DNA from: Bilabrum cf. latius
Taxonomy: Eukaryota
Assembly: GCA_965178125.1 (NCBI GenBank)
Contig: OZ237746.1
Location: 682,001-746,000, forward strand
Reading direction: 5' to 3'
Length of the DNA: 64,000 nt
Shown: positions 12,001 through 48,558 of the stretch, one piece after another
Layout: each line of letters begins with the position of its first letter
How positions within the stretch are numbered: the stretch's first letter is position 1
The notes under the pieces: generated by a model
The model's input: the letters and a program-made list of their open reading frames with translations, nothing else
Told to the model about the DNA's origin: nothing
The model's database searches: none
Position numbers and translations under genes: made by a program

Positions 12001-12722
12001 CGCAGGTGCTCGTGCTGCTGGTCGCGCTGGCAGTCATCGAGTCGGCCTCGCCCTTCCTCGAGGAATATGAGTGGAAAAGGGTGGGCAAAGTGGGGACTCT
12101 GCTGCTGTCCGCGCTAGCCGTGGGCCTCAATACCGTGTCGGCGCTGCAGTCGCAGCCGAGCATGCGGCCCAGGGAACACTCGCTGAGAGGCGCGGCGCTG
12201 GGGCTGACGTACGTGGTGGGAATCGGGAGCATCACATGCCTGTGCGTCCTCTTTGGACTCTTCTGGTGGACGCTGCTGCAGGAGGACCCGGAGAGCCCGG
12301 CGGCTATCCGGCGATCCAAGGAGAGAGATGTGCAGAAGCAGCTCGAGCTGAAGCAGCAGGCATCGAGGGGCGGGGTGTTTGGGGGAAAGGACGGGAATGG
12401 TGGCCTCAGCAGCGTGGTAAACCCGATGGCAGCGAGGCGACGCATCCATACCAAGCCCAAGCCAGAGGCAGAGGCAGAGGGAAACTAGAGGCGACCGTCT
12501 CATTCAGCTGGAGACAGGGCGCTGACTCCCTCGCATGACCGACCAGCCGAGAGCAAGCAGCTGCAAGAGCTCAACAATGCCCCGGGGCGATCCCCTAGAT
12601 CGCTGCTGGTAAGGGCAAAGAGCAGCAGCGAGGAAATGATGGCCGGGCACTTGCAGCCAAGCCGGAACCTGGCAGGCGGGCGGGGCCGCAAGGTGCGCCG
12701 AAAATCGCGATGGGAGACTTAA
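3..12722 (+). CDS. Giant cell-surface protein, 5'-partial, >4200 aa (TAG=Gln): BNR/Asp-box/kelch-like propeller region, long ectodomain, Cys-rich repeats, multi-pass TM C-terminus
   Basis: ORFs starting at 51, 345, 708, 1059, 1683, 2160, 2538, 3072, 3312, 3756, 4056, 4815, 5037, 6027, 7176, 7644, 8967, 9804 and 10575 share one frame and are separated only by TAG (~29). The first non-TAG stop is TAA 12720-12722, followed by AT-rich intergenic DNA. Asp-box motifs RSDDYGSSF, KSTNGGFSW, ASFDNGVSW, RSWDHGLHW; Cys-rich CPAGAVCPGG..PGYW..CEPP..ERC; several hydrophobic helices after 9990. Confidence 0.85.
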
Positions 12723-12907
12723 GTACGGACACTGAACGACTGCTACATATAAGAAGTACTTATAAATTAAAATCTCGCAAGGGTCAACCAGCAATCGAAC
12801 CGGACGCGTGATGAAGCCAAGCGCCGGCCAATAGGCAGTCTGTATTTCTTTATAACGTGCTGCACCAAATTGAAATTGTGTTGTAGGCAACCTTAACCCG
12901 GGAGGCA

Positions 12908-14845
12908 ATGTGCGTCGGGGGGTTGTTGGATGTGTGGCCCTGGTTGGCGAGGGTAGCACGCGACTTCAACCTGCCACACCTGCAGGTGGCGCTCAACCAG
13001 TGGGACCCGGCGGAGGAGGTCGGGGAAGGTGCGGCGGCAGGTGCCGGGGAGGCACCCCCTCTGCTGAACCCACTGCGAGGGCGCACCGCGCGCCTGAACT
13101 CCCTTGTGGACACTGTGATGACCGCAATCTCGAAGTACGGGAGACTCGTACAAGAGGGGAAGCAAGACAATTTCGGGATGGCTGGTTTCCCGAGTCCGTT
13201 GCTTCCACTTGTTCCGGAGGCTGACGTCCCCCCACGCTATGGTATGGTGTGGGACACAGCCCGCACTTCGGAACTCCTGGGCAGCCCAGCCGAGAAGGCA
13301 GCCCGTATGGAGCTGTGCGGTGGGGCCACTGAACCCTGGCGCCTGGAGGTGAAGGACCTTCGGGCATGGGTGACGAGGCAGCTGGCTGGGGAGCAGCCGG
13401 CACCCACCGCATCGCAGGCGGTTATTCGTTTTCTCGAAGGTGCCGCAGGAGGGCACAACCAGAGCCATGTGACGGCACTGGCTGAGCGAGTGCAGGTGGA
13501 GAGGCTCCTCTGGGATGCCTCATCTCCGCTTGCGCACGACAGACTCGCTCCAGTCGATGCAGTCACCAGAGAGTACGCAGGAGTGGCGCGAGCCACAATC
13601 CGCGCCGCCAGGTCCCAAGGAGCCGGGTCTTGGCTGCATGCGCCGCTCTCTGTCCTGAGCCGAGTCCAGCCTGAAGATGCCCGGGGCATGTTCTGCCAGC
13701 GCCTCGCCATCCCACAGCCGTGCAGCTGTCCCCCACAACCTCTTGGGGCAACGCACGGTGCATGTGGGGAGGCGTGGCGCGTCACGCAGATCTGCCCGGG
13801 GTGCCGGAAGCAGGGCAAGGTAGTCGAACTGATCTAGTCAGTTCGCCACGGTGCCACGTGCAAGGACAAGCGTGTCTGCGGAGGCCTTCCAGGCCGCAGG
13901 CACTTCCGGGTGCTCAACGTGCTCGAGCAGGTGGTCCGCGAGGCCACGGGCAGACGCCCTATCCGGGAGCCAGAGGGCCAAGTGGCCCGGCTGCCGGGTC
14001 GGCGCGGTCCGCTCGTGCCACGAGGCGACCTATTCTTTGAGCACGAGGGGACGGCTTATCTCATCGATGTCACGGTGGTTGATTCCACTGCGGCAACTTA
14101 CCGGTGGGACCGCTCGTCGTGGAGGATTGGCAGCGACTGGCAAGAGGGGTCTGCTCTGCGGGCCGCGCATGCCACGAAGCTGGCCAGCTACGGCAGGCCC
14201 GTCGACCTCGGAGCGCTCGGCGTCCGGATCGGAGGAGAAGACAAGTGGTGTCCTGGGACCGTGAGGACGCAGAAAGGGGCGGTACGCAGTGGCGTGCGGG
14301 TCGTACCCTTTGTGGTGGACGTGTTGGGGGGGATCGGGGAGAAGTCGGTCGAGTTCCTGTAGGTGCTCGATAAGCTGCGGAAGAAGAGGCAGGAGGACAA
14401 AGGGCGGCGGGTTCCGACTCGTCCGGCCAACGCGCGCCTCTCGTGGTCTTCCGTGGCAAAGGCTCGCCTCTCTGTTGCCGCCTAGCACCAGCACGTGCGC
14501 GGGGAACAGCGTGTGTACCACACTATGTACTCACGGGTCATGCAGGACCACTCAAGGATCCTCGATTTTGTCTCGAAGGGATCGAGGAGGGCTGCAGCGA
14601 AGGCCAAACGGGCGCTCGCAAGGGCGATCCGAGAGGACTTTGCCAGCCTGGCTGTAGGGGCAGCCGAAAACAACAACCTCGCCGTGGCGATCGCCAACGT
14701 CAAGGCAGGGTTGGCTCAGAACGGGCAGCAGGACGGGGTGCCGGCAGCGGGCGCCGGAGGGAACGTGAATGCTGACGCTCTCCATGGGGAAATGGGTCCC
14801 CAGGGTGGAGCTTAGGTGGTTTAGGCCATTGCAGCTGAAGCGTGA
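12908..14845 (+). mobile_element. 5'-truncated CRE-clade-like non-LTR retrotransposon ORF (CCHC zinc knuckle plus restriction-like endonuclease; RT absent)
   Basis: ORFs 12908, 13910 and 14495 share a frame joined by 5 TAGs and end at TGA 14843-14845. Motifs GAGSWL, CPGC-x-H-xxx-C, RH..V, REP, RGDL..IDVTVV, K.ASY, VPFVVDVLGGIG and RLSVAA(TAG)H match the C-terminal half of RLE-type non-LTR elements. No YxDD motif was seen. Confidence 0.8.
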
Positions 14846-15169: not shown

Positions 15170-18100
15170 ATGCGAGTTTTGGCATGCCTGGCATGCCTCG
15201 CCGCTGCCGGTGCTTCTTCGATCGGTTCGCTCGCAACGCTCGCGACCCAACAGCTAGCCGAGCGGTCTGTGTCAATGTCGCACGCGTTTGAGCTCACCGA
15301 TGCACTTCTAGGGGGTTTAGTTTCCAACAGTTAGAAAGGTAGGTCATTGGCCGGTGGATCAACCGAGGACCTGCACAGACTAGCGCATGCTCGCCTTCGC
15401 ACAGTTCGGCACCTCGCCGCTGAGCCTGACCAGGCCAGCGATCTCATCCAGCTGCTTCGAACGAGCCACACGCGAATTCACGCTGCTCCAGAGCACCAGT
15501 AGTGGGATGGTGCGTCCGCCGTGCTGGAGAGAAGGCACGAGGGCCACGCTGCTTTCCCGATGGTGCACGCGTGCTTACCGTAGGAGCAAGAACCGGCGGT
15601 AGCGTGCTTACCCACCGCGCAAATCAGCCTGCAACTTGAAGGGGGGCATTCAAAGTACACGATGGTCCACGTGTCGGCACCCAGGGAGTCCCTGGATGCT
15701 CTCGCGAAGCTCAGCGGAAGTGACGTGCCGCTCAAGGTGCGTGGCTTTGTGATTCCCGGCACGCACGACAACGCGCCACCCGGGGATCAGGGCACCGATG
15801 ACGACACTCCAATTTTGGTCATGGAGCATTTCGAATCGACGGAGCATCACGAGAACGAAACGAGGATCGACCTATCGCTCGCCCCGGAGACCTTTGCGAC
15901 CAAGTCGGGCGCTGTTTTCCCGGGACGGGCCTCCCAGCATATGGGCGGAGGCGATGAAGAACCGCGCCCCCATGGCGGGGTTCATACACATCTCCTCCAG
16001 GGGACGCCAAACGCGCGGCGCCTGTTCCGCTACAGCGAGCCGGGCATCGACACCGGCGACCAGACGGTGGGCGTGGTTCTGCTCACCTGGCGGGACGCCG
16101 TGGAAAACCGGAACTACCGGTTCGCCAGCGACTCGGCGGCGCGGCAGCACATCAAGGAGGTCTGCGACAGGGTCACGAGCTACTGGAGGGATTGGTCCTA
16201 CGGGCGCCTGCGGGTTCCCAGCTGCAAGATCTACGGGCCGTTCGACATGGGCGACGTGCGGACAGACAACCGGAAAGGGGTGTACGGTCTCCTCTCGCAG
16301 CGCTTTCTGCAGTCCAGCTACAACCAGGAGGTGCAGCTGCTGGAGGAGCACACGTTCGCCATGTTCTGGAACGCGCCCAGGACGCTGGTGGGTGCCTCTG
16401 GGCTGGGCGCCTTAGGGGGCAGGACCTCTTGGTACAACGGAGTGTACTCGTTCCACTGGGGCGTGTTCGTGGTGGCGCACGAAGCGGGCCACAACTTTGG
16501 GTTTCATCACGCGTCGTACGCCGAGGCAGAGTATGGTGACTGCAGCGATGCCATGGGCGCCTGCGCCAGCCTCCCTTCGGACAGCCACCACTGCAACCAC
16601 AAGTTCTTCTCCAACTGGATCGACAGGGAACAACTGGCCATGGTAACTCAGGAGGGCCCCACGCCCGACTGTCCCTCCTGTCTTCCCGCTGGGCAGACCA
16701 TCCGCCTGGGACCTCAGGACATGCCCAGGCTCCCGCACCGACTCACCGACGACACGGCACCTGAGGACCTGGAGGCAGCGCGGGCCGAGGATTCCCTCGA
16801 CCTGTGCATCGCAGTGGCCCTCACACCCGACGGGTACAGGGCGCCTTCCTACTGGGCACGGCCCGAGACACCCTCGGGATTCTTCCGCGAGTGGCTGTGG
16901 ATCGGCACTAGGACCCAGGCGAACCAGGCGCAGCAGAGAGGTGTCGACCACCGTGGAGAGCTGCAGATGGTCACGCTTAGCTTCAGGGCGGTGCAGAGTA
17001 TCTCAAACTACATCAACACGGGGCTGGCGGAGGCTTCGGCCAGACGCTCGTTCGCTCCCAACGGCGTGCCTGTGGGCAGCGCGTACTTTTTCGATGGAAA
17101 CCCGTCGATTGAGGGGGCGCGGGAGAGCTACACGGGCCCGTACTTTGTGGTCTAGAACAAGGCCCAGAAGGGTTTTCCGCTGGACGCTTCGGCTGCTGTT
17201 GACAGAGACGGCGCGTATCCCGTGTCGGATGTGACGATTGAATACACGGACCGGTGGGGCGACAGCACCCACGGGATCGGCTGCAGCCTCTTCGCCTGCC
17301 AGGAATCGATCCGGGCAAGGCTGGAAGGCGCGCCGGTGCTGCCTGCCGACGCAAGCATCGACCGCGTGCTGTTTGCCACCCCGCTAGAGCACACGTTCAC
17401 GTGGAAGGTACAGCCGAGGCGGGAGGTGACCTTCGCCGTGACCACCTGCGGGGGTGTGACGAGCGAGGATGTGTCCGTTCGGCTGGCGCTCCACTCGGAA
17501 GACGCCCCCCCGATCGAGACGGTTGGGTACGGTGCCCCGGTCTACGCCCGCGCATCCCACAGGGGTGTTCCTTGCTCCTCCTCTGGGACAGGGAGAGATC
17601 ACGACGAGCTGCCTGCGGTGCAGCTGCAGGCTGGTGTCACGTACTTTCTGACGGTGGCTGTGCACGAAGCTGAGGACAGCATCCGGCCGGGGGAAGAGCA
17701 CGCCGTGCACCTGCGGTCCGCCTCCACCGAGCTGGCTTGCGGCTCCGTGTCTACACCCATCGGGATCATGAGGAGAGAGCCGGGCAGGATCTTGGGCAAG
17801 CCCCACTACAAGGAAATCGGGGGTTTCTCTACCATGCGGTACAACGGAGATGGGACGTGGAGCCTTTCCAAGGTGAGGAGCCCAGCTCTACCGCCCTCCG
17901 TGAGCACCATCCGGGCCGATTCGGTGTTCCAGGCAGGCGTCGTCTGCAGGTGTCCAGGGGACTCGGTGAGCGACTTCGAAGGGGACCGTGGATTCTGCGT
18001 GCCTTGCCCGGGGAACAGCACGGCCAAGGGGTACAGTGGCTCGCAGGAATCCTGCGTCGACACTACCACCAGCAGCAGCGGGGGTGGAACAGCACCGTCT

Positions 18101-21100
18101 GGGTCGCAGTCCATGGCGGGCGGTGGCACCGTCACGTCGACCGAGGCCTGCAGTGCAGTGCAGGTATCGGGGCTCAGCAATGACGGCTTGAACGGCAAGT
18201 ACGACCTGTTCAGCATCCCGCAGGACCAGAGCTTCCCCGTGTACAGGAAGATCTCCATGCTGGAGCACAAGGTGTACTACCTGTGGGGCCGGTTCGAGGA
18301 GGCCTCGAGGGCCACGCGGTGGTTCATCGGGGACACGCCCGGGGAGCTAGAGAGGATCGCGGCCGAGTGGATCGTGCCCGGCAGGGCGCCCCAGCCCCAG
18401 GCAGCCGCCACGGGCCTGGACTCGGAATCGAATCCCATCGCGGCAGGGGAGCGCGACTCCACGGCTCTGGACGAGGACAGCCCCCCGCCCATGGAGCCCC
18501 TGCCCGCCGGCCAGCAGCTGAGGGTGCAGTGCATCTGCCAGGAGGCGGTTCCCGGGGCGGGCTTCGGCCCATCCGGAGCCGGGTGCGTGTGTCCCGCGGG
18601 CACCGAACCTTCGGCGCCGAACTCCAACGAGGGTGGGCTGCAGATGGTGGCCGGCCTGGGCCAGTGCACAGCGTGCGGCGTGGACGAATTCGCCGCATTC
18701 GACGGTGTCAGGCCAGGGGAGTGCCAGGCGTGTCCCGTGGGTGACGGCGCTTTGGCCGGGTCCAATTCCGGCTCCGAGTCGTGCGACGTGCCGTCCTGTG
18801 CGGTGATGAGCATCGACTTCGGGGCGGGGCTGGGAAACCACTCGCGAACGTTCGATGGGGTGTACGAGCCCCACGCCCTGCCCGGCGTGGATGGCACGCA
18901 GAGCGCCTGGAAGATGCGCGGCGCCGGCGGTTCCGCAGTAGCGATCTGGCGCTCGGCTCGGGACGGCGAGTGGGTGGCCAGCCCCGATTTCGCGGCGTAT
19001 CAGGCGTTTCTGGAGGGAACTGCGGGTCACGAAGCGGCGTATCCCGTCCTGCGGTGCAGGATGGGAGGGGTGAGCCTGGCTGCAACATTCCAGGAAGCAG
19101 ACGACTGCTGGGTGCTGGAGGAGGCGCCGGCTGGGGAACAAGAGGACGACGACGGTCAGGGTGCGGGTGCTGGTGGCGTCAAGCTGACGGGCACCTCGCT
19201 GGCCTGCCTCTCCGCAGCGCCGGGGTTCTTCAAGCCGAACGGTACTGTGGTGGTGTCGTGCGGCGCCGCGCCCCCCGGCAGTGACGTGGACAGGCTGGGT
19301 TCCACAGAGGGGGCTACCAGCCAGGCCGAATGCGGGTGCCCCGAGGGAACCTTCGCTGACGCAGGGAACAACGGTGCGTGCGCGGCATGCGCGGCGGGCT
19401 CGTATTCGGCTTCGGTCGGCGCGAGCAGCTGCAGCAGCTGCCCAGCCGGCTCGTCCTCCCTGGCCGGTTCCGCCGTGTGCCACTGTGACGACGACGGGGA
19501 GACTTTCGATTCCGATTCCGGGTTGTGCGTGGACAAGGACCCTTGCGAGGCGGGAGGACCCGGGGATGTGTGCGAGCACGGGTGCGCGGTTGCAACCGGC
19601 GGTGGGTTCACGTGCGAGTGCCCCGCCGGGCAGCAGGCCTCGGGGGTGTGGCAGGCGTGCTCCACCTGCCCCCTTGGCACTTACTCGTCATCCTACGGCT
19701 CCGCGGGGTGCCAGGCATGCCCCGCGGGATCCGTTACGTTGGAGCCGGGGCAGTCGTCCGCTGAGAGCTGCACCTGCCGGCAGGGGCTTCGGCGGGACCC
19801 GGTGACGGGCGAGTGCGAAACACCAAACCGCGTGTATGTGTCAGTGCCGTCTTCTTCCTCGTCCGGGACTCGATCCAGGGAACAAGCGGCGGCGTCCCAC
19901 CTCGGAGGGTGGTACGTCAAACTGACCGTCGACGCAGCCAAAGCCGTGCTGGTGGCACAGGGGAGGCAGCCGCAGGCGGATGCGATCCAGAGGAATGCGC
20001 AGCATCCTCACGGCGGAGCATACGGCTACAACGGTCACCCCGTGTACGGTCAGGCGAGCTTCGCTTCGATGAACGGAACCTTCCTTGCCTACGAAGCGGC
20101 CGCGGAAGGCCGCACGGGCGTGTGGTCGATTCTGCATGGCTTGCCTTCGCACTCCACCTCGGCCCCTGGCGTGCGCGGCGCCTTCGCCGTGCTGAAAGGT
20201 TCCGCAGGTGCCAGCGAGCCCGCGAGCCAGGGAACACAGCGATGGGAGGTGTTCGAGCCTGCCACGGAGCGGTTCCAGCCCATCGCCGGCATGATGGCCC
20301 TGCAAACCTGCGCCCGGCTGGCAGCGTGCCCCGCGGCCCCTGCCATCGGCTTCACACCGGCCACAGCGGGTGCCAACGTGGTGAGGCTGGTGCGCCCGGG
20401 GAGCGCCGTCTGCCCCTCCACCGCCCGATTCGCCCACGCCATGGGCACCGTGCTCGAGCAAGTGCACGCGGTGCTGCACGGCGACGATTACGCGAGCCAG
20501 GGTGGGCCCCTGGTCCTGGACGCTTTGAGCGGGGCCGTGACCCAGACCCAGCTGTACGGGGTGATGGAGGCCGTGCTGGGCGGGTGGGAATCCGCGGGTG
20601 CCGTGCTGCTTCAGGCCTCGGACGATCCGATCGCGACGGTGACGCATCGCGCGGTGATCGCGCCGATGCTGGAGGGGTTGCGGCGGGCCCTCGAGGAAGG
20701 TTCGCAGGGAACCATCGCTGCGTGTCCCGCCGGTTCCGCGGTGATGCTGTCGGCACAGGCGGCCACGCGAGACGTGCTCGAGGCCGTCCATGCGGCAGCG
20801 TCGGGCGCGTATGCCTGCGATCCCGTGCTGGATTACGCAGCCCTGGCGGGACGTCTTGCCGATGTGACGAGTGCGATCGCGCTCGAAGCCGCGGGTTCGG
20901 ACACCCCAGAGGCCGACCGGTGCCCCGCTTTGGCCGCCTTCCATGCGAGCGTATCAGCCGCCATGACCGCCACCTCCGACTCCCTGGCTGCCAGGGCTGG
21001 CATTCGCCGTGCAGGGGACGACAAGGCCCAGCTGGAGGCCATGGACACGCTCTGCCTGGATCGGCCAGACGCGGGCGCCTCCTTCGGGATCGAGGGGGTG

Positions 21101-24100
21101 TACGGCGTGGCCTGCGGCGATCCGTCGGCCACGTTGGCCATCCGGGAGGAGATCTCCAGCGCGGTGGAGTGCATTGGGGTACGGTGCGGCGCCAACGGGC
21201 AGTGTCGGGCGGGCCAGTGCCAGTGTGACGAGGGCTACAGCGGCCTGTCCTGCGAGGTCGCGCCGGATCCGTGCGAAGGGGTCAGTTGCGGGTCGGGGGG
21301 ATAGTGCTTTGCGGGGCGGTGTGTGTGCGCTGCGGGATACCTGGGCCGGAGGTGTCAGATCGAGGAGTCCCGCATCAACCAAGAGGCTGCGGCCGCTTCG
21401 TGCGCGGGCGTGGACTGCGGCTCGAACGGTGACTGCCACGTGGGCAGCTGCTTCTGCCACGAGGGGTACTTCGGTCCCGCCTGCGAGCACGAGGTGAGCG
21501 ATGACACTCGGGTTGAGCTTGAGGACGGGTCGGTGGAGCTGACCGTGCACGTCCGGAGCTCCGATTTCGTGCGAGTGCAGAGGTACGCAGGGGACGTGGA
21601 ACGGCCCGGTGCCGTCACCAGCCTCCACACCCGTGCTCTGGACAGCAGCAACGTCCGTGATGTGGTGGGCATTGAGGTGCCGGGTGTGCGGCTGGAGGCA
21701 TGGTCCAGGATACAGAGCGTGCGGGTGGGCCTGTTGCAGGCACCTGGGTCAAGGACACCACCGGCGGGAAAGGGGGCTCCTGCCGTGGTGCGAGTGGCGG
21801 CGCATATCCTGCAGCCAAACGCCAGCGACTCGGTTGCGGTGGCCGCCGCGGATGCAGGTGCGTCGGTTCTGAACCAGGCCGCGAGCAGCCCGGGCGGACT
21901 TGCCGTTCCCTTGGTGCAGATGGGGGAGGCCTGTCATGGGGTGGAGTGGGCGATTCCCGAGTGGCCCAAGGACCACGGGTTCGGACGAGTGAGCACGCCG
22001 GAGCTCCGCAGTGCGGTGCAGCCCGCGCTGCAGCACCGTGAGTGGACCAACCAGAGCGCCTTGCTGCTTGTGTTCGAGCCCATTTCGGGTCAGGGAATCA
22101 GAGCTTTCCACACGACACCCATCGAGATCAAGATCAGGTACATGCCGCCCGTCCCCTGCAACGCAACGGCAGGTCCCGAGCAGTACAAGTGCCCCGCCAA
22201 CTGGCTCTATGACACCAGGCAATAGAGATGCGTCGCCGTCCGCAACGGGCAGTGTTCCGTGGGCAGGCTCAACACGACCACCCAGGAATGCTACGAGCCG
22301 AGTCTCGCCCCCGATTGTCCCGCGGGCCTGTACTACTCCGAGGAGCAGGGGGCGTGCGTCACCCGGTACCAGCGGGCCAGGTGCAGGCCGGGCTTCTTTA
22401 TCTCGGGGAGCAACCAGTGCAGGACACTGGCGGCTCTCGGGTATCCGCAGATGCCCCGGTGCCAGCAGGGCGAGAGCTACTACATCCCCGACACCAACGC
22501 TAGGATCAGGAGCTGCGTGACCGTGTGCGGTGGCAGCAGCGATTCTCGTCGCCTGTCCCTGCGGTCTGCAACCACGTCATTGCCTGGGCGTGGCATGGCC
22601 ATCGACGGCCCTGAAAGCTCTGCCGGTTCTACTCCTCCAGCTCCCAGCGATTTAGAAACCACACCCGCGCAAGCATCCAGGCAGGCCCAGGCCCAGGCCC
22701 AGGCCTAGGTGGATCAGAAGGAATAGGAGAGGGAGGAGCAGGAGGAGGAGGCGTCAACCAGTGTCGACGAAGAGCCCGCCGTGAGGGTGACGGCCACATC
22801 CAGGCATGGGTTTGAGGAGGTGCGTGAAACAATCGGAGCCGGTGGTGAGGCATCCGCACCGGCCGCTGCCTCGGCCAGCATCGAGATCGACCGGGACGCT
22901 GCCACCGTGGCCATACCAGCAGCCCTGCTGCAAGACGACGACGACGACGACGATGGCGAAAATCACAACCATGCCGCCTCAGGCAGCTCCCGCCACCGTC
23001 GGACCCAGGCGGGCGCTGGCACCACAAGCCCGCTGGAGCGCCTCACGGGCTCCAGCCAGCACGCCGACCAGTATCCCATCCCGATGCACCGGAACCCAGA
23101 CGCTGCGGTGGGGCACAAAACGTTTGCGGCCATTTTGGTGGACACCCCGGGCAATAGCTGGTACAACAACAGCTTGGGAAACGAGATCAACGTCACGGTC
23201 GAGACGGTCACCGCACACATGGAAGGCGTCATGACCGATTTCGCTGACGCTGTCAGGCTGTCATCCGGCGGCCGCATGACTGCCTCTGCCGATGTGCTGG
23301 GTCCGCTGGCGGTCCGGGCAGACGGCGGTCTCAACGGCTTCACCAACTGGTACTACGGCACGCTGCAGCCGAACAATCCCCAGGCGTTTCCCGAGGATCA
23401 CGAGGCCTGGTGGAACTACCCGCACGAGTTCAGCAAGGCCTTCTACAGGCAGCACGGACCCAGCTTCAACCTCTCCTTCGGGGACAGGTACACGGACCGT
23501 GAGTTGGACGAGGACGCCGCGTACGACTGGATCGTGCTCATCTTCCCCCCGGGGCAGTTCGACTCGGGCATGAACGAAAGGAACCAGTGGTTTCTTCGGT
23601 CCATGCGGGTAGATGCGGGCTACGTGGTCATCACCAACCAGCAGTCGAGCCACGACGTGCCGGATCGTCGCAGCATTTTCGGGTATTTCGGCAGAGAAGG
23701 CGTCGGGTCCATGCTCCCGTTCGTCAACGCAGGCGAGCTGATGAAGCTGTGGGGCCAGACCCTGGGCCTGTAGGGCGATTCCTGGAGGCACGAGGAACTG
23801 GGCCAGACCCTGCCATCCCCCATGAGCGTGATGGGAGGCAGCACCGCCCCGCGGGTGGATTCCGATTCCGGATCCATATCGGGGGGTGACTTGTCGGTTT
23901 GGGACAAGGTGCTCCTCAACTGGGAGAGTGTGGAGGACTCCAAGTTCGCCACTCTCGGGCCCCTGGCAGACTGCGGGGAGGGCAGGTGCGCCGGCCGGGT
24001 CAAGGCTAGGCTCGTGGTGCACGACGCCTACCAGCTCTCCCGCGCCGCGGCAGGCGCAGCCGCCAACGCGACGGCCGGGACAGCAGAGGCCGTTACCTCT

Positions 24101-27100
24101 ATCCAGATTGAGCTCATGGACGGTCAGCTGGCCAGCCACGCCCAGGGCGAGCTGGGCGCCCCCCTGCACGACAGGAAGTGGCACTCGATCGAGCTCGCCT
24201 CCAGGAACAGGGAGGGCAGGGGCACCAGCGGTCAGCTGTGGCCCGAGCAGCCGGTGGCGGGCATGGTAGTCACCACGGAGGGAAGGTTCGCTGGCGGCAG
24301 CGAACCCGTGAGCATCACGAGCGGCAGCACTTGGTACCAGGGAGCCATCGAGGGTGACGCCATGGCGACCTTTGAGTGCGTTCGGAACGGGTGGGTGCGG
24401 GAGAACGGCGACTGGGTGTACAAGTGTCTCGAGCGGCAGAAGTACGGGGTGTACCTCAGGGTCGAAGGAGGCAACGTGCCTGCATGGCCCGAGGGTGTGT
24501 CCCAGGCCAACTACAGCGAGACCGTGGTTAGGCCGGTATTCGAGCAGAGCATGGGCTTCGATGCGTCTGGTGGGGGTGGCGATGTGGATCTGGAAACCGA
24601 CCAGCAGCGGGGCATGGCAACTGCCAGCAGCCTGAGCAGCGGGCCGGGAGCGACGTACTCGTCACACGCCGACGCCATCCTGGGCGAAGGCATGCTCCCG
24701 GCCTACGACGTGCACGCACATGTCCTCCTGTCAGGATGGGGAGATCCCGCCCAGGGACGAGGGTGCAGCGAGCCGGCGTCGGGCGCCTAGGAATCCGCCG
24801 AGTGTGTGACGGAGTACACGGCCACCGGGGTGCTGGCGCAGGCACCCACTCTCGACGCGGCGGCCGCCTCGGCCCGCGCTTCCATGGGTGAGAACGATAC
24901 TGCTTACTCTGTCGGCGTGCAAGCCACCATGACTCGCGCGGAGCCGTACGTCTGGCGCAAGCTGACCGTGTCAGAGCCGACGACGGTCACTTTCCACACC
25001 TGCGACGACGCGAGCTCCACGTCGGGTGATCTGCCCCTGGGTCTGGCAATATTCGCCGAGGACGGCGAGCACGTGCCCGTGTGGCAGGCGCTCCGCATGG
25101 CAGTGCCCTACACTGACAACGCCCTGGGGCTGGACCGCGCCTGCGACGGTGCCGATGATACAGGCGCAGGCGCGATCAGCAGGCGCAGGCGCACTGCCGT
25201 GGCTTCGCTCACACCGGAGAGGGACGAGACGTCGGGGCAGGCTGTGCCCACCACTTTCGTGTTCCTTGGGTATCTTAAGGACTGGTACTACGAGTCGTCC
25301 GAAGCGAGCTACGAGCTGGACGCGACCGTGGAGATCAGGCACGGTGATGTGTTCCCTGGGTGCTCCCACGGGCTGTGGCGGATAGGCAGCATCAAGTATC
25401 CGTTCAGTATCATGCGGGGCCTGCACGCCCCCGTCAACACGACAAGGTATCAGCCGGTGGAGAGGGCCGGTGACATCAACTACAACCCGGATGCCATTCG
25501 GTACGACTACATCGCGGCCAAGGACTCGGGGACTCAGGCCAGGCTTGGAGAGTACAACGCAACGGATGGGAGCCTCCTCGCCACGGTGGGGTACTGGACG
25601 GCCCGCGCCCACCAGATCCGATGCTGGTGCGGAGAGGGGCTGGAGGACGCCACAGCGGCGGGGGATGATGGCGGTGACGGCGCCCCTATGTGTCGCGTGT
25701 GTCCCGCGGGGTCCTCCTCGGGCGACCTGGAGTCCGAGTGCGCCTGCGCGGCGCCGTACGTCCGCGGAACCGGTTCCGCAGAGGGAACGTGCGAGCTGTG
25801 CCCCGACACGCACTACTACGATGCAGATGATGACGAGTGCGAGCCGTGCGGTGAGGGCCGGAGGAACAGGGACACGGCGTCTCTCGATGGCCCCTAGCTA
25901 TGCACGATGCGCACGACGGCCGCAACCGCGTCAACCATCGAACCGCCCAGGACGATCGGTGCAGCCGCCACGCTGTACGTGAATGACGCCGACCAGTCCA
26001 ACGCGTGCAGCGCCGCTGGGCAAGCGAGAAGCGCGCAGGGCCAGTGCGAGTCATGCCCCATGGCACAGAGTCCCTACAGGGGACGGATCCCAGGGGGGGC
26101 TGCCGGCGTGTGCGGGAGTCCAAGCTGCTCCAAACTATCCGTTGAGTTTGACGCGACCACCCAGATGGCTCGTCACACGGGCACGTGGGAGGCCTACGAG
26201 ATCGAGCCGGCGAGAGCTGCCCTGGCCTAGGGGGTGTCCTTTGCCGATGCAAGGAACGGGAGCGGGCTGCTGCTGCGGGCCGCGGCCGGGTCTATCCGCC
26301 CCGTGGTGGGTTGGAGGCACCTGAGCGCGGGCACGTTCCGCTCCTTTGCATATCCGGAGAGCGATCGCAGGTGGGTGGTCCGTGCCCTTGAACACGACGC
26401 CGCTGTGCTCCTGGCGGAGTGCGATCTGGAGGCGGGTGAGGCCACGCTCGATTACACAGAGACGCTATCGACGGGTTGCTGGGTGGTGCCGGGTCACGAA
26501 GAGGAGCAGGACGGGGCTGACCTGCCGCAGGTCTCCTGCATCGCGGCGGCTGATGGATTTTACCTGGCCCCTGCAGCAGGTGGCTCTTCTTCGGTCCAGC
26601 AATGCCCCGAGGGTACCATGTCCCCGCCGGGCGCCACAGCGGCATCCCAGTGCACCGGGGGGCTCGTCACCCAGTCGGCGCCCGATTGGACCCCCACATG
26701 GTCCCACGCCAGGAGCAGGGACACGGGTGCTGACGAGTGCGAGCCGGGCAGCCTGGCGGAGATCGGGTGCACGGGTGGATGCGCCGGCGCTGGTGTGTGC
26801 TCCTGCCCTGCGGGCAAGGCGTACGTGTACGAGGACGGTCTGTGCGAGGTGTGCCCCGAGGGAACCTTCGCCAGGGAACAAGACCTTACCTGCCAATCGT
26901 GCCCGTTGCACTCGTTATCCGTGCGCGGGGCGGCGTCGTCGTTCGAGTGCGAGTGTGACGAGGGTTTCGTTGCTCGCACGGACGGCACCCCTGGCTGCGA
27001 GGTCCCCGTTGTGCTATACGTCACTGTGAGTGGGGGCAGCCACAGGCACCTGCAGGGCAGGTATGCTCTCGAGACGGTTGCAACCGCAGGTGAAGGTGCT

Positions 27101-30100
27101 GCAACGGAGCCCCGGCTGTTCCATGGCCGCCCCCTGTATCGCCAGGAAGTGTCGTCGCTCTCGCGGGGCGTGTACCTAGGGTGGGCAAGGCCGGAGCAGT
27201 CCGACCAAGGAGGCGAATGGGCCTTCTTCCGGTCTACCTCGGACCACTACGCGCGGTTTGCGAGCAGCGGCGCTGCAGCTGCCGCCGCGTTCTTGACCCC
27301 GGCGTCCTCTTGGAGCGCCTTCCGGGATACGACCTACTTTTTCGAGCCTGCCAGGATCGCCGTGTCCGCTTCATGCCCGGAGGGTGTTTTCTGCGGAGCC
27401 TCCTCGGATGCCCAGCAGCAGGCCACCCGCGCGTCCATCGTGACGAGTGCGATGGCCGCGGGCAGCTTCCCCGAAGATGCGTGCAGCTCTGACCCGAGCA
27501 CGGCGGACTTGATCGCGGCTTGGGCGGGTGGTCTGGCTGCCTTGGAGAGCCCCAGGGATGTGCTGAGGGGAGCCGCTTCATCGATCGATCGCCCGTGCAG
27601 CGATGTGGAAGCAGAAGCCACAGTGCTTCTCGCCGCGCTGAATGCAGCGAGCGGTGTCGCTTCTGCGGCGCGAGGCATGCAAGGACAGGCCTCGCTGGAT
27701 GCAGCGGCGGCTCAGATCGAGCGAAGGCTGGGCGGGCTCCGGGTCGGCGTGCTTGCCCTGCTGCGCGTATCTGCCTGGGTGACCGAAGGTTTCTCTTCTC
27801 CCCTGGTAGGTTCATGCACGGAACAGCAGAGCGAGGGTTTCCTGGCTTCCGCTGGATCGGCCGCGTATGCTGCAGCGTACCGGGCCTCTGGAGCCAACGC
27901 CACGCTGGCCTGTGGGTGGGCTGGGGGCAGAGAGGCGGCGGCGCAGGGGGGTCAGTTCCTGGGGCCCTCGCCTGTGTGGGCTCTTCTGCAGGGTGTGATG
28001 AGTGCGGTGGAGAGGGTGGCCAAAGACGTCGAGTCGTCGATGGCGACCGAGGTGCAGGCAGCCAAGACAGCCGCAGGCAGTGCAGCCGATGATGATGCTC
28101 GCTCAGCCGCACAGTCTCGTCTGGCGCTTGCCGGTGCCCTCGAGGGCACTGCCGGTTTGACCACCCTTGCTTCCGAGTCGGTCCGGTTCTCCACCAAGGG
28201 CAGGAGCGACGGTTCCATCGCCACTGCGGCAGATGCGCCATGCTTCGCCGACGCGGCCTGTCCGGCTGACGTGCAGTACGGCGCCGGTGCTCTCGTCCCC
28301 TCTTGCTTCCGGTTGTGCTCGGACGGTCCCACGCCTTAGCGAGCCCGCGCTGTGGAATTGATTGGTGTGATGAGTGCGCTGGAGCGGTGCGGCTCGAGCT
28401 GCATGAACGGGCGGTGCGACGCGGAGGGCTCATGCAGGTGCAGCGACGGTTTCTATGGCACTTGGTGCGACAAGCAAGGGGGTTCTTGCTTCGGGGTAGA
28501 CTGCGGGGCACACGGGACGTGCACTTCCCAGGGTACGTGCAGCTGTGACGAGTACTGGGCGGGAACGCGGTGCCAGCTGCGGGAGGCGGGCGTGGAATCG
28601 GAGCTGATCGGCACCTCGGAGCACGGGTCGAATTTCCCCTGTACGGCGGAAGAGGGCTTCTGCGGGCGGCACGGGAGGTGTGTTCCCTCGGGGAACAAGC
28701 CGTCCTGCCAGTGCTTGGACGGGTACTGGGGGCTTCTTTGCGAGAAACCGCCGGGCACCGCCGTGCACGCGCGGTCCACCGGTGGATTGGACCGGCTCGC
28801 GGCGGTTATCCTCAGCGAAGACGCGGTGGGGCTGCACGACCTACACTCTCTTGCCGTGGACCAGGGCTCTGTCACCAGTCTGCCCAATACACCCAGGCAC
28901 GTCGTGGGCGTGGCTGTGCCGAACGTTCGTGTGCCCCGCGGGTCCCAGGTGGCCGCTGCCCGTCTGTACCTGCATCCATCCGGCGTGCCATCAGACGGAT
29001 GGACGGACCCTCTGACCCTAACAGTGAGGCTGGCCGTAGGACCGCCGAGTTCCGATTCCGGGTCTTTTTCCTCCTCCGTGTCACCCTTCCTGCGCTCGGC
29101 GGACGGCCTGACGAGCCTCACACCCGTGTGCGGCAAAGTGCAGTGGCAGGTGCCCGCAGTGCAGGACGGGTCCAGCACCCTGTCCACGCCGGATCTGTCC
29201 GCACTCGTCACATCCCTGGTGATGGGTGAAGACTGGACCGCAGGATCCACCGTGGTAGCACTCGTCACACACGTCTCCGGCTCGGGCACCAGGACGATCA
29301 CGCGTTCCTTCGCCAAGCTCGACCTCCAGTTCAAAGCGCCCGCTGGTAGTGCTGATTCCGGGGCCGATTCAGGTGATGAGGAGAACGATGAAATCGTTGC
29401 GCCATTTTCGCCGATCGATGCGAATGGGTGCCCCGTGGACCAGCCTCTGGAGTGTCCCGCTGGCGAGGCATTCGACTCGGTGCAGGGGCAGTGCGTGCTC
29501 GTGCCAACGGACAGGCGCACCTGCGGCCCCGGGCTGCTCCTGGACACCGGGTCCCAGTCGTGTCTCCCCATTGTTCCCTCGGAGTCGTGGCCCGCGTGCA
29601 GCGCCCCCTCTTTGCTTGACACCATCAGCCTGGCCTGCGTGCTGCCAGAGGACCCGCTTCCAACCTGCCTGCAGGGGCAGGTGCTCAACCGATAGTTCCA
29701 GTGCGAGACACCGCCAGCTTCCGTCTACTGCGGGGCCGAGGAGATCTACGACCCGGAGTCGGAATCATGCCTCGCCATCTGCCAGTCCACGGCCCAGGCC
29801 ATGGGCACGGGGTCCAGCGGCGGACTCCCATCGGGTGCCTGCGCGGCGCTGGACGAGGCAGGGAGCGCGTGCCCCAGCTCGGAGGAGTACGGCATCAAGG
29901 TGACCGACGACAACGAGCAGCTGACGGTGGTGACGGAAGACTCGGATTTTGTGGTGTCGGGGGCGCTGTCCTTCCCGGGCCTGAACCTGGGGTCCTTCGG
30001 GCCAGGCATGAAGAACGCCATCAAGAGGAGCCTGGCGCGGGCCTCGGGGACGGATGCGACGCGGGTCGTGATCACGAACGTGTTCCGCAGGGATCGAAGC

Positions 30101-30763
30101 AGGCGCCGCGCACAGGACACTGCAGCTGGCGATGATGGGAATGGGATCGGCGTGAATTACGACGTGCTTGTGGAGGACGAGTCAGCCGCCCAGTCGCTGG
30201 CTCTGGCCATGGATCCCGCGGCCCGGGTGAACACCTCGTCGATCGGAGGCGGTGAGGCATTCGGGGCGGAGGGGCAGGAGGTGCTGTCCGTGGCTGACGT
30301 GATCGGTGCTCTGCTGGCCACTGAGCTGGAGGCGGAGGGGGTGCAGGTGCCGGCCGGTGCATTGGAGGTGCAGGTGGAGACCCCGGAGGCCATGCAGCGG
30401 TCGTATGCCGCGGGGTTTGTGGAGCCGTCGTCCGATGCACTCGTGGCGGAGGCAAGGGGCGAGCCCATCCCGCAGGAGGGGGGTAGTGGGGGTGGGGATG
30501 GTGGTGGTGGTGCGCCTGTGGCTCTGATTGCGGGCGTGGCGGTGGGTGCTGCCGTGGTGCTGGTGGGCGTGGTGTTGGCGGTGTGGTGGTTTGCGGGCAG
30601 GAGTGTGGGTCGGACGGTGGGACCACGCGTGAGCAGGGGTGATGGGGGTGGGCTAGGTGGGAATGGTGGTGGTGGTTCCGCAGCAGCAGCGGGGGCCAAG
30701 TACGGGAAGGCGGATCGGTTGGCGAAGGTGAACAACCTGGCCAATCCGGCCGAGATCGCGTGA
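15170..30763 (+). CDS. Giant type I membrane protein, 5197 aa (TAG=Gln): signal peptide, M11 (gametolysin-like) metallopeptidase, Cys-rich/EGF repeats, second degenerate M11 module, C-terminal TM
   Basis: ATG 15170 directly follows an in-frame TAA and opens a signal peptide, MRVLACLACLAAAGASS. One frame runs to TGA 30761-30763 with 14 internal TAGs. HEAGHNFGFHH plus EYGDCSDAMG Met-turn; EGF motifs CQCDEGYSGLSC, CFCHEGYFGPAC; TM ALIAGVAVGAAVVLVGVVLAVWWF. Confidence 0.9.
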
Positions 30764-31262: not shown

Positions 31263-34200
31263 TCAAGGCCACCAGCTCTGCAACTTGGCAAGTACAGGCC
31301 TGGCTGCCTCAAAGCCCCTCTGCAACGCCGCCTCCATCGCACTAATCACCTCACCCTGCACATTCCTCGACTTGATCCAGGACCCGATGGGGCAGGTTTG
31401 TGTTTCAGCCAGGCACCCTAGAGCGCCTAACGCGTATTCCCGGCTTGACGAATCACAAAGAGCGGTTCCAGCCAAATTCTGTAGATTATCTTTAAGTGAA
31501 CTTTCTTCTTGTGCGATGGAAGCCAGCTCACGGTGATGCAAACATAAATTCCATAGAGAGCCGGCACCTAGTTCCGCTTGTTTGCTCTTGTCAGACCCCA
31601 GCAGTCGCACTAGCCCTGGCACAGCCCCGGCCTCCACGATGACATCTAGATGTGCATCCAATCCACTAGCTAGGTTGCAAAGTGCACAAGAAGACGCTTC
31701 CGCCTCCTGGCCCTTGTCAGACCCCAGCAGTCGCACTAGCCCTGGCACAGCCCCGGCCTCCACGATGGCATCACGATGTGCATCCGATCCACTAGCAAGA
31801 TGGACAAGTGCACAAGAAGATTCCACCGCCTCCTGGCCCTTGTCAGACCCCAGCAGTCGCACAAGTCCTGGCACAGCCCCGGCCTCCACGATGGCATCAC
31901 GATGTGCATCCAATCCACGAGCTAGGTTGCGTAGTGCACAAGAAGATGCGTCCGCCTCCTGGCCCTTGTCAGACCCCAGCAGTCGCACTAGCCCTGGCAC
32001 AGCCCCGGCCTCCACGATGGCATCACGGTGTGCATCCGATCTAACAGCGAGATGCAGTAGTGCACAAGAAGACGCTTTTGCCTCCTGGCCCTTGTCAGAC
32101 CCCAGCAGTCGCACTAGCCCTGGCACAGCCCCGGCCTCCACGATGGCATCACGATGTGCATCTGGTCCACGAGCAAGATGGAGTAGTGCACAAGAAGATG
32201 CGTCCGCCTCCTGGCCCTTGTCAGACCCCAGCAGTCGCACTAGCCCCGGCACAGCCCCGGCCTCCACGATGGCATCACGATGTGCATCCGATCTAACGGC
32301 GAGATGGAGTAGTGCACAAGAAGACGCTTTTGCCTCCTGGCCCTTGTCAGACCCCAGCAGTCGCACAAGTCCTGGCACAGCCCCGGCCTCCACGATGGCA
32401 TCACGATGTGCATCTGGTCCACGAGCAAGATGGAGTAGTGCACAAGAAGATGCGTCCGCCTCATGGCCCTTGTCAGACCCCAGCAGTCCCACAAGTCCTG
32501 GCACAGCCCCGGCCTCCACGATGGCATCACGATGTGCATCCGATTTAACAGCGAGATGGAGTAGTGCACAAGAAGACGCTTCCGCCTCCTGGCCCTTGTC
32601 AGACCCCAGCAGTTGCACTAGCCCTGGCACAGCCCCGGCCTCCACGATGACATCACGATGTGCATCCGATCTAACAGCGAGATGGAGTAGTGCACAAGAA
32701 GACGCTTCCGCCGCCTGGCCCTTGTCAGACCCCAGCAGTTGCACTAGCCCTGGCACAGCCCCGGCCTCCACGATGGCATCACCATGTGCATCTGGTCCAC
32801 GAGAAAGATGGAAAAGTGCCCACGAAGATGCGTCCGCCTCCTGGCCCTTGTCAGACCCCAGCAGTCGCACTAGCCCTGGCACAGCCCCGGCCTCCACGAT
32901 GACATCACGATGTGCATCCGATCTAACAGCGAGATGGAAAAGTGCACAAGAAGACGCTTCCGCCGCCTGGCCCTTGTCAGACCCCAGCAGTCGCACAAGT
33001 CCTGGCACAGCCCCGGCCTCCACGATGGCATCACGATGTGCATCTGATCCACGAACAAGATGGAAAAGTGCCCACGAAGATGCGTCCGCCTCATGGCCCT
33101 TGTCAGACCCCAGCAGTCGCACTAGCCCTGGCACAGCCCCGGCCTCCACGATGACATCACGATGTGCATCCGATCTAACGGCGAGATGGAGTAGTGCACA
33201 AGAAGACGCTTTTGCCTCCTGGCCCTTGTCAGACCCCAGCAGTCGCACAAGTCCTGGCACAGCCCCGGCCTCCACGATGGCATCACGGTGTGCATCCGAT
33301 CCACGAGCTAGGTTGCAAAGTGCACAAGAAGACGCTTTTGCCTCCTGGCCCTTGTCAGACCCCAGCAGTCGCACTAGCCCTGGCACAGCCCCGGCCTCCA
33401 CGATGGCATCACGGTGTGCATCCGATCTAACAGCGAGATGGAGTAGTGCACAAGAAGACGCTTGTGCCTCGTGGCCCTTGTCAGACTCCAGCAGTCGCAC
33501 AAGTCCTGGCACAGCCCCGGCCTCCACGATGGCATCACGATGTGCATCCGATCCACGAGCTAGGTTGCGTAGTGCACAAGAAGACGCTTTTGCCTCCTGG
33601 CCCTTGTCAGACCCCAGCAGTCCCACTAGACCTGGCACAGCCCCGGCCTCCATGATGGCATCACGATGTGCATCCGATCTAACAGCGAGATTGAACCAAA
33701 AAAGAAAAATTCCTGCCCCTGGTCCCGCGGACCCACTGGGCTTCACCCCGAACGACTGGTTCTTCACCGGTCCACCTGAATGCGGTATTCATCTGACACT
33801 ACGAATGTACACACCACTTTCCCCATGCACCCGACTGGCCTCGTCGCCACATGGCTTCCTGGTCCTGTTCCCCGCCCTAGGGACCGTGTGCTTTGCTCCC
33901 AGCATCGCCACCTTGGCCCTATCCTTTCAGCTTGCACGCGCCGGTCCTGGCCGACCTGCCGTGCGCCCCATCTGTCCACCCACCTGTTGGCCTTCTGCGT
34001 GCTGCTGGCCATGCAGTCCGCTGCCACCCGAGTCTCCCTCGTGCCTTGCACCTGGAGCCCCCATTCCTCCCGCTGTGTTCTCCCTGTTGACACCGCACTG
34101 TCGTCGCCTGTGCCGGTGTCCCCCTCTTCTTCTCCACCTCCTGTCCTCCCGCCTCGTCTTCCGTCTCACCTCTGCTCCCCGTTGCTTCAATCCTGATGTC

Positions 34201-43200: not shown

Positions 43201-43930
43201 CAGCGGCTTGGAAATCGTCCTCGTCAGGTGCCAGCACTGGCAGGTAGTCGTCATGCTCCTCCGTGATCTCACCATCAACCGGCTAGTACATGGATTTTCG
43301 ATCGCTGCCGTCCATGATTGCACCATAGCCGTAGTACGACACCGCATTCATGGTACTCCGCAGCCCAAACGAAGCGTTCAACAGCATGGGAAGCTCGAGA
43401 AGCACGCTCACGCAAGCATCGAGGCAGCTCGCGGACTCCGTCGGATGGTTTGTTGCCTGCCGTATACCGGCCTCAACAATATTTGCAGAATGCTGCAAGG
43501 CGCCACGCTTTGTAAGCGGGTGCTCGCAAAGCGCGGCTAGAAGTTGCCAGCTGTCGTCGACTTCATGGGAATCCGGCTCCTCTGAACAACGAGCAAGCAT
43601 ATCACCACAAATCCGCGATGCGACTTGATGCGTTCGTAAGTATACATTATCACCACTATTTGTGCCGGCATTTGGGCCTCTTAGCTCCCGTGTGAGCATT
43701 TCGGAGGCTTCCTCGACGCCTTCGGTACCGAGCTTCTCGAGAATGGACCTTGCAGCCTCAGCTGGAGCAATAGGAGCGATTAAAGTTGCGTCAATTGCAA
43801 GCATAGGAACATTAGAAAGCATCATAAAGCCAAAGTAGCGACAGTCAGTCTTTCGAATGGGCCAATGATCCTTGGATAGTCTGGGATCCTATTTTGCGTG
43901 GGGTTCCGGGGCGAGGGTGGCAAGAATCAT
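31263..43930 (-). CDS. Giant armadillo-repeat protein (~4050 aa after removing the 524-bp insertion; TAG=Gln) with a unique N-terminal half and a 19-aa tandem repeat
   Basis: Minus ORFs with 5' ends at 43825, 43237, 41467, 41011, 40162, 39322, 39001, 38443 and 38119 share a frame with ~20 TAGs and no TAA/TGA (gaps read by hand). The frame resumes after the 33692-34215 insertion and ends at TGA 31263-31265. ARM consensus AIVEAGAVPGLVRLLGS. Start uncertain: ATG 43930 preferred, 43825 or 43963 possible. Confidence 0.75.
31585..38085 (-). repeat. Tandem armadillo array: ~29 near-identical 126-bp units (31585-35790) plus a second subfamily interleaved with 5 copies of a ~77-aa module (35790-38085)
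   Basis: 126-bp periodicity of the cccttgtcagaccccagcagtcgcac...cacagccccggcctccacgatggcatcacgatgtgcatc block. Second block DKRDEARDAAEAIRN with LQPTASFMPRGPANAVLESM module x5. Confidence 0.95.
33692..34215. mobile_element. 524-bp insertion with TG...CA termini and no target-site duplication inside one ARM unit
   Basis: Removing 33692-34215 restores ctaacagcgagatgcagtagtgcacaagaa, identical to the intact unit at 32041. The insert starts TGAACC and ends TATAACA. Length mod 3 = 2 explains the frame change between ORFs 34187..38119 and 31263..33767. Confidence 0.75.
41605..42890 (-). repeat. Coding minisatellite, 57-bp unit (~22-23 copies) encoding AGAPGGSSDTEERVYAAA(A/S)
   Basis: Direct repetition of tccgaggacccaccgggggcacctgctg(c/a)tgcagccgcatacacccgctcctctgtg, in frame within the giant minus-strand gene. 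Confidence 0.95.
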
Positions 43931-44047
43931 TAAATTGCGCACCACAAAATCTGAATTAATCATTACTCCCAGAAAAAATATTCTTGTATTTTGGTCCCCT
44001 GTAGTACTTGAGAAGTATAATTACAACAAAAAGTCAACGTGCACCAT

Positions 44048-46432: not shown

Positions 46433-46575
46433 ACCCTGCGGTACTAGCTCCTGCAATAGTCCACCAGTTGCCTTTTGCTACTCCGATCGGAAATTCCAAT
46501 TTGCCTCACGACAACCGCTGTGGTGAAAATGCCACACTACGCGAGTGTTCGATGAACAAAAAACGAAAATTCACT
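46433..46575. promoter_or_regulatory. Putative compact bidirectional promoter
   Basis: 143-bp lower-GC spacer between divergent start codons of the permease (46432, minus) and P4H (46576, plus). Confidence 0.45.
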
Positions 46576-48507: not shown

Positions 48508-48558
48508 CTGCTTGGCTGCTTGGCTGCTTGGCTGCTTGGCTGCTTGGCTGCTTGGCTG
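48508..48558. repeat. 8-bp microsatellite (CTTGGCTG)x6
   Basis: Direct reading of 48508-48558. Confidence 0.9.

Follow-up and report, generated by a model that had tools for sequence, protein, structure and literature searches.

Codes that read both UAA and UAG (UAR) as glutamine (Gln; NCBI table 6) are found in many ciliates, hexamitin diplomonads and some green algae. Codes in which UAG has changed meaning and UAA is kept as a stop are reported, in the portions of the literature drawn on here, from few lineages, namely one fornicate, one rhizarian and some phyllopharyngean ciliates (PMC5304391, PMC11687900). The nuclear code of Iotanema spirale (Metamonada, Fornicata) is described there as using UAG for Gln and both UAA and UGA as stops (PMC5304391), and UAG = Gln was also found, by mining public assemblies, in the phyllopharyngeans Hartmannula sinica and Trochilia petrani (PMC11687900). 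The same excerpts give leucine (Leu) as the meaning of UAG in the rhizarian exLh (PMC5304391) and in uncultivated TARA phyllopharyngeans (PMC11687900), and crAss-like phages are described as using genetic code 15, in which TAG encodes Gln (PMC9523058). Here we describe a stretch of 64,000 nucleotides (contig OZ237746.1 of assembly GCA_965178125.1, Bilabrum cf. latius, positions 682,001 to 746,000), hereafter the window, whose long open reading frames (ORFs) contain in-frame TAG codons, and we consider which residue these codons specify.

The window very probably comes from a GC-rich eukaryote whose nuclear code, as judged from sequence comparison, reads UAG as Gln and keeps UAA and UGA as stops; the support for Gln comes mainly from outside the window. 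The GC content is 0.54-0.67 per 4 kb and the gene products look eukaryotic. With the standard stops, no ORF in the window exceeds ~1,380 codons. Reading TAG as sense resolves the window into a few very large ORFs (about 5,197, 4,239 and 3,277 codons) and nine others, and adding TAA as a second sense codon brings the giants from 5,198, 4,240 and 3,278 to 5,286, 4,355 and 3,287 codons, a gain of only 9-115 codons. TAG alone is reassigned, because TAA as sense adds almost nothing to ORF length. The resulting gene set consists of 12 ORFs of 453-5,197 codons each, 19,839 codons in all, with in-frame counts of 100 for TAG, 0 for TAA, 0 for TGA, 546 for CAG and 161 for CAA. TAG is thus a sense codon in the window far beyond chance. 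The 100 TAGs lie within ORFs that have Pfam domains, paralogs or homologs and are spread over ten of the 12 ORFs, two having none. The ORFs themselves end in TGA or TAA, and both codons still terminate in the metagenomic relatives described below as well. The 12 ORFs are:

3..12722, + strand: giant ORF of 4,239 codons, 29 in-frame TAGs, open at the 5' end of the window, stop TAA.
12815..14842, + strand: ORF of 676 codons, 6 in-frame TAGs, without Pfam match.
15170..30763, + strand: giant ORF of 5,197 codons, 14 in-frame TAGs, stop TGA; signal peptide, HExxH gametolysin-like (M11) block, teneurin-type EGF and ephrin-receptor-like modules (EGF-module TAG at 21302) and a C-terminal transmembrane helix.
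31266-33788, - strand: pure armadillo-repeat ORF, no TAG.
34190..44020, - strand: fusion of a CLU (clustered-mitochondria) domain and armadillo repeats, 3,277 codons, 20 in-frame TAGs.
44051..46570, - strand: amino-acid transporter (Aa_trans), 3 in-frame TAGs.
46363..47886, + strand: 2-oxoglutarate-Fe(II) oxygenase (2OG-Fe(II)), prolyl 4-hydroxylase-like (P4H-like), 5 in-frame TAGs.
49738-52092, + strand: ORF with no TAG, without Pfam match, with the highest GC content at third codon positions (GC3, 0.81).
52487..53845, + strand: ORF of 453 codons, 4 in-frame TAGs, without Pfam match.
54560..57559, - strand: leucine-rich repeat (LRR, RI-type) paralog 1, 7 in-frame TAGs.
57960..61268, - strand: LRR paralog 2, 7 in-frame TAGs.
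61240..63999, - strand: LRR paralog 3, running off the window, 5 in-frame TAGs, all common to paralog 1.

TAG density peaks in the ORFs of low GC3, a pattern that resembles a rare, possibly disfavoured codon. Spliced contigs of two RNA-like public runs (X6 and X8) skip segments 49091-49226 and 49734-49838, both with GT..AG ends, and the organism therefore splices canonical introns. The two introns sit upstream of ORF 49839-52092, which in these runs is covered ~15-30x deeper than its neighbours.

The evidence on the identity of the residue is drawn chiefly from relatives of the CLU-domain gene. Residues 780-1979 of the CLU ORF (18 TAGs), queried with full HMMER against 1.84 billion cluster representatives, gave 149 matches. 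The best of these (45-60% identity) are short metagenome fragments, and the relatives in the protein database are fragments of 70-480 residues, which fits gene calls cut at TAG, though many of them lie on short contigs. The closest full-length protein from a named source belongs to the stramenopile (bicosoecid) Cafeteria roenbergensis (a Clu-domain protein, 34% identity), also the only named organism among 20 homologs examined by cluster look-up. Word-index protein searches returned one match for the CLU part, two for the P4H-like ORF and two for an LRR paralog. Compared with the 149 matches alone, the CLU TAG columns of the window place Gln, serine (Ser), tyrosine (Tyr), glutamate (Glu) and lysine (Lys) within a few bits of one another, in a manner that depends on the filter. 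At TAG 40624 (residue 1133), in the column RVQV-x-A, 11 of the 22 matches with at least 38% identity have Gln.

A metagenome contig collection, scanned with a small alignment built on the conserved block of CLU, yielded 14 loci of 1-11 kb, of which 13 share 53-61% identity with the block and the remaining one 42%. The CLU-block gene is open only with TAG as sense in all 14 loci (1,989 codons versus 247 with the standard code in locus L014, and 1,748 versus 373 in another), and treating TAA or TGA as sense is of no help. The locus ORFs contain 1-22 TAGs each and stop at TAA or TGA. These related sequences are 28-77% identical to one another and could be paralogs, different species, or both; a TAG-only code is common to this set of environmental sequences. 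Flanking genes in the relatives also carry in-frame TAGs (3-9 each; L001:168-3113, L005:1-7531 and L006:1-1794), which include a GH3 protein with a WSC domain, a P450, an AAT-family protein, a PLD-like protein and GTP cyclohydrolase II, and the code thus extends beyond the CLU family. Beside the CLU-like gene of one locus (L012:667-1638) lies an ORF resembling the C-terminal part of the LRR paralogs (...RVFRAA.EGRPLEL.KRL...GGL...PLEAA..GGH.ECV), and the LRR paralog family is therefore common to the relatives. No CLU-block relative was found in the genome contig or viral contig collections, nor was a 40-base stretch of the window found in the latter.

For the column test, the CLU segment of the window was aligned with the 14 loci and with 17 long homologs, the latter picked from the 149 matches as being uninterrupted over more than 900 residues and hence presumed to use the standard code. 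Three identical duplicates (L003, L005 and L012) were dropped, leaving 12 non-redundant TAG-using sequences including the window, and the 114 of 137 TAG sites with at least six aligned residues were used (15 of 18 in the window). Sites were scored with the family's own conditional matrix, P(aligned residue given residue). With all references (114 sites) Gln came first, followed by arginine (Arg) at -15.9, threonine (Thr) at -17.0, Glu at -17.1 and Lys at -31.0 bits, and it won 1000 of 1000 bootstraps. With the 17 long references (104 sites) the next residue was Glu at -9.4 bits (995 of 1000 bootstraps for Gln), and with the TAG-using references (87 sites) it was Thr at -21.6 bits (1000 of 1000). 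The residue profile of homolog columns opposite TAG, which the earlier note on this DNA had proposed as a check, thus ranks Gln first with this matrix in all three reference sets. Leu falls outside the eight best residues, and Lys, Glu, Leu, Tyr and tryptophan (Trp) fit the TAG columns poorly.

By their composition, the columns opposite TAG look like real Gln columns and unlike those of other residues. Nineteen of the columns holding TAG have a majority residue, which is Gln in six, Arg in three, and Trp, proline (Pro), Leu, glycine (Gly) or alanine (Ala) in two each, with Lys and Glu in none; at real Gln sites, Gln is the majority residue in 34%. Gln is enriched 2.86x opposite TAG versus 4.14x at real Gln sites, and the profile opposite TAG correlates best with that of Gln (0.55). 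In the window alone (15 sites) column log-odds give Gln +9.7 and Lys, the next residue, -5.9, a gap of 15.6 bits, and the window-only data weakly favour Gln. It is only from the deeper homologs, the 114 TAG sites that the CLU-domain family has in the window and in its relatives from metagenomes, that Gln emerges as the predicted residue. An independent check with curated Pfam profiles applied hmmscan to the WSC, GH3 N-terminal and P450 segments of the loci's flanking genes, covering three of six TAG-bearing domain segments, 8 of 13 sites and 10 of 20 residues. With TAG set in turn to each residue, Gln scores highest in these profiles by a little, the summed bits being Gln 341.3, Glu 339.8, Lys 338.9, Arg 338.8, Ala 338.3, Ser 337.5, Leu 337.0, Thr 336.2, Tyr 335.4 and Trp 333.0.

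Several results weigh against Gln, and they favour no particular other residue. The calibration of the matrix method, in which same-sized samples of Gln, Lys, Glu, Arg, Ala, Ser, Leu, Thr, Trp and Tyr were recovered in 199-200 of 200 draws, is somewhat optimistic, since its sites come from the alignment that gave the matrix; a log-odds variant recovered each of the 20 residues in 289-300 of 300 draws. Restricted to the 15 sites of the window, the matrix method gives Gln only 477 of 1000 bootstraps. Simple log-odds with the 17 long references put Arg (-56.0) and Ala (-65.4) above Gln (-65.6), a lead that we take as a bias of this uncalibrated variant to abundant residues in noisy columns. TAG columns are also less conserved than real Gln columns, as seen in the 2.86x versus 4.14x enrichment and in a negative mean Gln log-odds, and two TAGs, one of them in the window, sit in strongly Trp-conserved columns. 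Loci L010 and L011, which are 77% identical, share five TAG-TAG matches and show seven unlike codons, with no TAG-CAG exchange. Two relatives of the P4H-like ORF have Pro/Pro, valine and Gly opposite window TAGs, and the nearest relative of the TPR-like part of the window (P0024, 59% identity) carries Lys opposite three TAGs of the window. Transfer of the result from the clade to the window assumes a single shared reassignment. Finally, the components of the decoding system were not among the genes at hand: no tRNA(CUA) was seen, ARAGORN finding no tRNA in the window or the 14 loci and an Rfam scan of the window plus 7 of these loci giving no match at the gathering threshold, and neither the 64 kb window nor the ~72 kb of related loci contains an eRF1 gene.

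The earlier note had concluded that alignments internal to the window point to Gln. Gln itself is supported by the family-level data, but the in-window reasoning is insufficient for it, as the LRR columns opposite TAG give Lys three times and Gln twice (a further point on the adverse side) and the EGF column is variable. An all-against-all BLAST within the window found paralogous partners for only 16 of the 100 TAGs, every one of them within the LRR genes, whose three copies are 70-88% identical. Two proposed TAG-CAG pairs hold up. The TAG of AAM-TAG-SG (55508-55510, paralog 1; column 732) faces CAG in both other copies (AAV-CAG-SG and AAM-CAG-SG), and that of AIL-TAG-RSG (57092-57094, paralog 1; column 195) faces CAG in paralog 2 (AVL-CAG-RPG) and TAG in the third. 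The count of three Lys sites and one Glu site among the paralogs was also right. Independent columns opposite TAG comprise AAG (Lys) 3, CAG (Gln) 2, GAG (Glu) 1, ACG (Thr) 1, CCG (Pro) 1 and gap or TAC 1, and one column (574) is TAG in all three paralogs. Two TAGs of paralog 2 face AAG in both other copies, and the GAG-facing column likewise has GAG in both. CAG, AAG and GAG each differ from TAG by one first-base change, and therefore pairs between recent paralogs reflect mutational proximity as much as meaning. Paralog 2 carries a TAG 11 codons before its stop, followed by a Cys-rich C-terminal end (...CSVS) like that of paralog 1 (...CTVS), and translation appears to continue past this TAG. 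The ends of paralogs 1 and 2 (54560-54590 and 57960-58000, - strand), ...GCPCTVS and ...GCGCGCSVS, look like CaaX or palmitoylation signals; the end of paralog 3 differs from both.

Other in-window signs concern repeats and neighbouring codons. A Gln-Ala (QA) repeat in which TAG replaces CAG is present as described, (CAG GCC)x4 followed by TAG at 22706-22708 (whole tract 22682-22708, + strand), in frame in the 5,197-codon ORF, and a second TAG lies downstream at 22724. The repeat shows that its TAG descends from CAG; the tract is of low complexity and may accept any residue. In the EGF modules of the same ORF, CGSGG-TAG-C (21302) does adjoin CGANG-CAG-C (21200), but the column is not conserved, the other three modules having GAC, ACG and AGG. 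The halves of this ORF align at ~25-27% identity, with TAGs opposite Thr, Gly and Ser and one poorly aligned site. The reported adjacency to Gln codons was confirmed at 3273-3281 (CAG TAG CAG) and at 924 (TAG CAG CAA) in ORF 3..12722. Over all 100 TAGs, 14 of the 200 flanking codons encode Gln versus 7.1 expected (binomial p = 0.013), and Lys, Glu, Arg, Leu and Ser are near expectation. A neighbour-composition likelihood, which seeks the residue whose sequence context TAG resembles, gave no consistent winner. In the CLU ORF, four TAGs fall within 13 codons at 40324-40360 (- strand; residues 1221-1233, W-Q-TAG-G-TAG-TAG-G-G-I-Q-S-D-A-E-TAG). The stretch that holds them is an insertion relative to most homologs and could represent either a low-complexity patch rich in Gln or a small intron that escaped recognition.

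Among the alternatives, reading of UAG as Lys is improbable. It would account for the three LRR columns facing AAG and for the Lys residues of P0024, and Lys is enriched 1.47x opposite TAG. This enrichment compares with 8.53x at real Lys sites, and the modest excess arises because AAG is one step from TAG. At the family level Lys lies 31.0 bits behind Gln, it is the majority residue in none of the 19 TAG columns versus 65% at real Lys sites, and it is absent from the 52 residues aligned at TAG 40624.

It is just as improbable that UAG specifies some other residue, be it Leu (its meaning in the rhizarian exLh and in some ciliates) or one of Tyr, Trp, Arg, Ser and Thr. Leu is a meaning of UAG in UAG-only codes according to the sections of the published reports drawn on here (PMC5304391, PMC11687900), Arg is second overall in the matrix test, two TAGs lie in Trp-majority columns, and the TPR column facing one window TAG is Tyr/Leu in distant TPR proteins. 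The columns are not Leu-like, however: Leu is enriched 0.87x opposite TAG versus 3.62x at real Leu sites and is the majority in 2 of 19 columns versus 85%. Trp is enriched 2.18x versus 31x, Arg wins 0 of 1000 bootstraps at 15.9 bits behind Gln, and in the Pfam sum the deficits of Leu, Tyr and Trp relative to Gln amount to 4.3-8.3 bits.

A Glu reading is slightly less credible still. It draws on the LRR column with GAG in both other copies and on second places with the 17 long references (-9.4 bits) and in the Pfam sum (1.5 bits behind). Glu falls 17.1 bits behind with all references, wins 4 of 1000 bootstraps with the long ones, and is the majority residue in none of the 19 columns versus 48% at real Glu sites, with an enrichment of 1.09x versus 3.17x.

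Near-cognate readthrough inserts several residues. UAG might accordingly lack a dedicated tRNA, being ignored by eRF1 and decoded by near-cognate tRNAs as a mixture of mainly Gln with some Lys, Tyr or Trp, a scheme to which we give about as little credence as to Glu. It would match a profile opposite TAG that is Gln-like but diluted, with extra Lys and Trp, and one of the two TAG-free ORFs (49738-52092) is the most deeply covered in the RNA-like runs. The excess of Lys and Trp has a simpler mutational explanation, however, and 100 TAGs in 19,839 codons together with conserved TAG columns would be hard to sustain without efficient decoding.

That the TAGs are untranslated, being errors, lesions of pseudogenes, parts of introns that escaped recognition (GT..AG introns do occur in this organism) or codons edited to CAG in the mRNA, is close to negligible, given 100 in-frame TAGs versus 0 TAA and 0 TGA, a region (44000-54346) over which contigs from the runs of four studies match the window letter for letter, every TAG included, retention of TAG at one column of all three LRR paralogs and at Gln-conserved columns of the relatives, and, for editing, a collinear contig of run X6 (46550-47861) that keeps all five TAGs of the P4H-like ORF with 0 other letters; run X6 holds spliced contigs, but its RNA status is a guess (as for three runs), so editing keeps a slight probability. 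The differences listed between runs and window in 54844-63308 look like cross-mapping among LRR paralogs.

If UAG is read as Gln, published UAG-only codes suggest how this could be achieved (PMC5304391). A tRNA with anticodon CUA, charged by glutaminyl-tRNA synthetase, would decode UAG; this anticodon would pair with UAG and not UAA, and recognition of UAG by the N-domain of eRF1 would be lost or weakened. TAG codons would arise mostly by silent C>T change of CAG, as in the QA repeat and two LRR columns. Others would descend from AAG, GAG or TGG through tolerated single-base replacements, and the presence of Lys, Glu and Trp opposite TAG would then be accounted for.

The window also contains repeats of other kinds. 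A 13-mer, GGTGTGACGAGTG, occurs 17 times with at most one mismatch versus 0.09 expected, at 44329-45790 (- strand), 47527-47539 (+ strand) and 49742-49777 (- strand), with weaker copies at 6867, 17453, 20861, 27992, 28364, 29202 and 29259. Within the transporter and P4H-like ORFs it stands in sense orientation and reads G-V-T-S. Copies are often paired 24-87 nt apart, within non-conserved inserts that roughly double the length of the transporter, and two lie inside intron 49734-49838. It could represent a binding site or an insertion element. Where contigs are joined between its copies, only ~20 letters lie on one side, and these joints look like assembly effects. The armadillo repeats (31263-38100, - strand) form ~60 tandem units of 126 nt, 86-96% identical, over two adjacent ORFs, and the N-terminal portion of the CLU ORF contains ~22 copies of a 21-residue repeat (GAPGGSSDTEERVYAAA..); neither the armadillo units nor the 21-residue repeats contain TAG.

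A code that changes UAG alone to Gln is of a type already known, here probably in a lineage without an earlier report. Searches of a body of literature that lacks most subscription journals returned no GC-rich non-ciliate with a UAG-only Gln code, and the lineage may already be described. We consider it possible, though somewhat short of an even chance, that the window and the 14 loci represent an undescribed clade of GC-rich, intron-poor protists with giant genes, in which UAG split from UAA independently and became Gln. In a bolder variant, the clade may decode UAG without a dedicated tRNA and insert a Gln-dominated mixture. Should such a clade exist, it would mark an origin of a rare code outside metamonads and ciliates, the groups from which the literature drawn on here reports UAG-only change to Gln, spread over several environmental data sets. 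UAG-only codes bear on how eRF1 distinguishes UAG from UAA, and one more lineage, which seems to be an entire clade of environmental organisms, would be an additional independent example. Gene callers that apply the standard code cut such genes at every TAG, and the Gln identity permits correct translation of the contigs.

Set beside the known codes, the one proposed for the window has features in common with each. As in the account of Iotanema spirale in the portion of the report used here, UAG alone is reassigned, UAA and UGA terminate, and Gln is deduced from homolog columns (PMC5304391). The organism is of a different kind, however, with GC-rich DNA, giant, mostly intron-less genes and a stramenopile as the source of the nearest named CLU homolog. 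The change of UAG alone to Gln and its detection in public assemblies are likewise shared with Hartmannula sinica and Trochilia petrani, as far as the consulted part of that report describes them (PMC11687900). Nothing in the window points to a ciliate: its 64 kb carry very large genes at a high GC content, in probable contrast to ciliate genomes. In the codes that use UAG for Leu, UAG is decoupled from UAA as it is in the window, whereas Leu fits the columns of the window family poorly. The UAR codes share with the window the residue, and presumably the route through a mutated tRNA-Gln, but the window has 0 in-frame TAA versus 100 TAG despite 161 CAA, and one of its giant ORFs ends in TAA. 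The codon table proposed here is that of the crAss-like phages (NCBI table 15), which are served by bacterial ribosomes, whereas the window carries eukaryote-type genes and spliceosomal introns.

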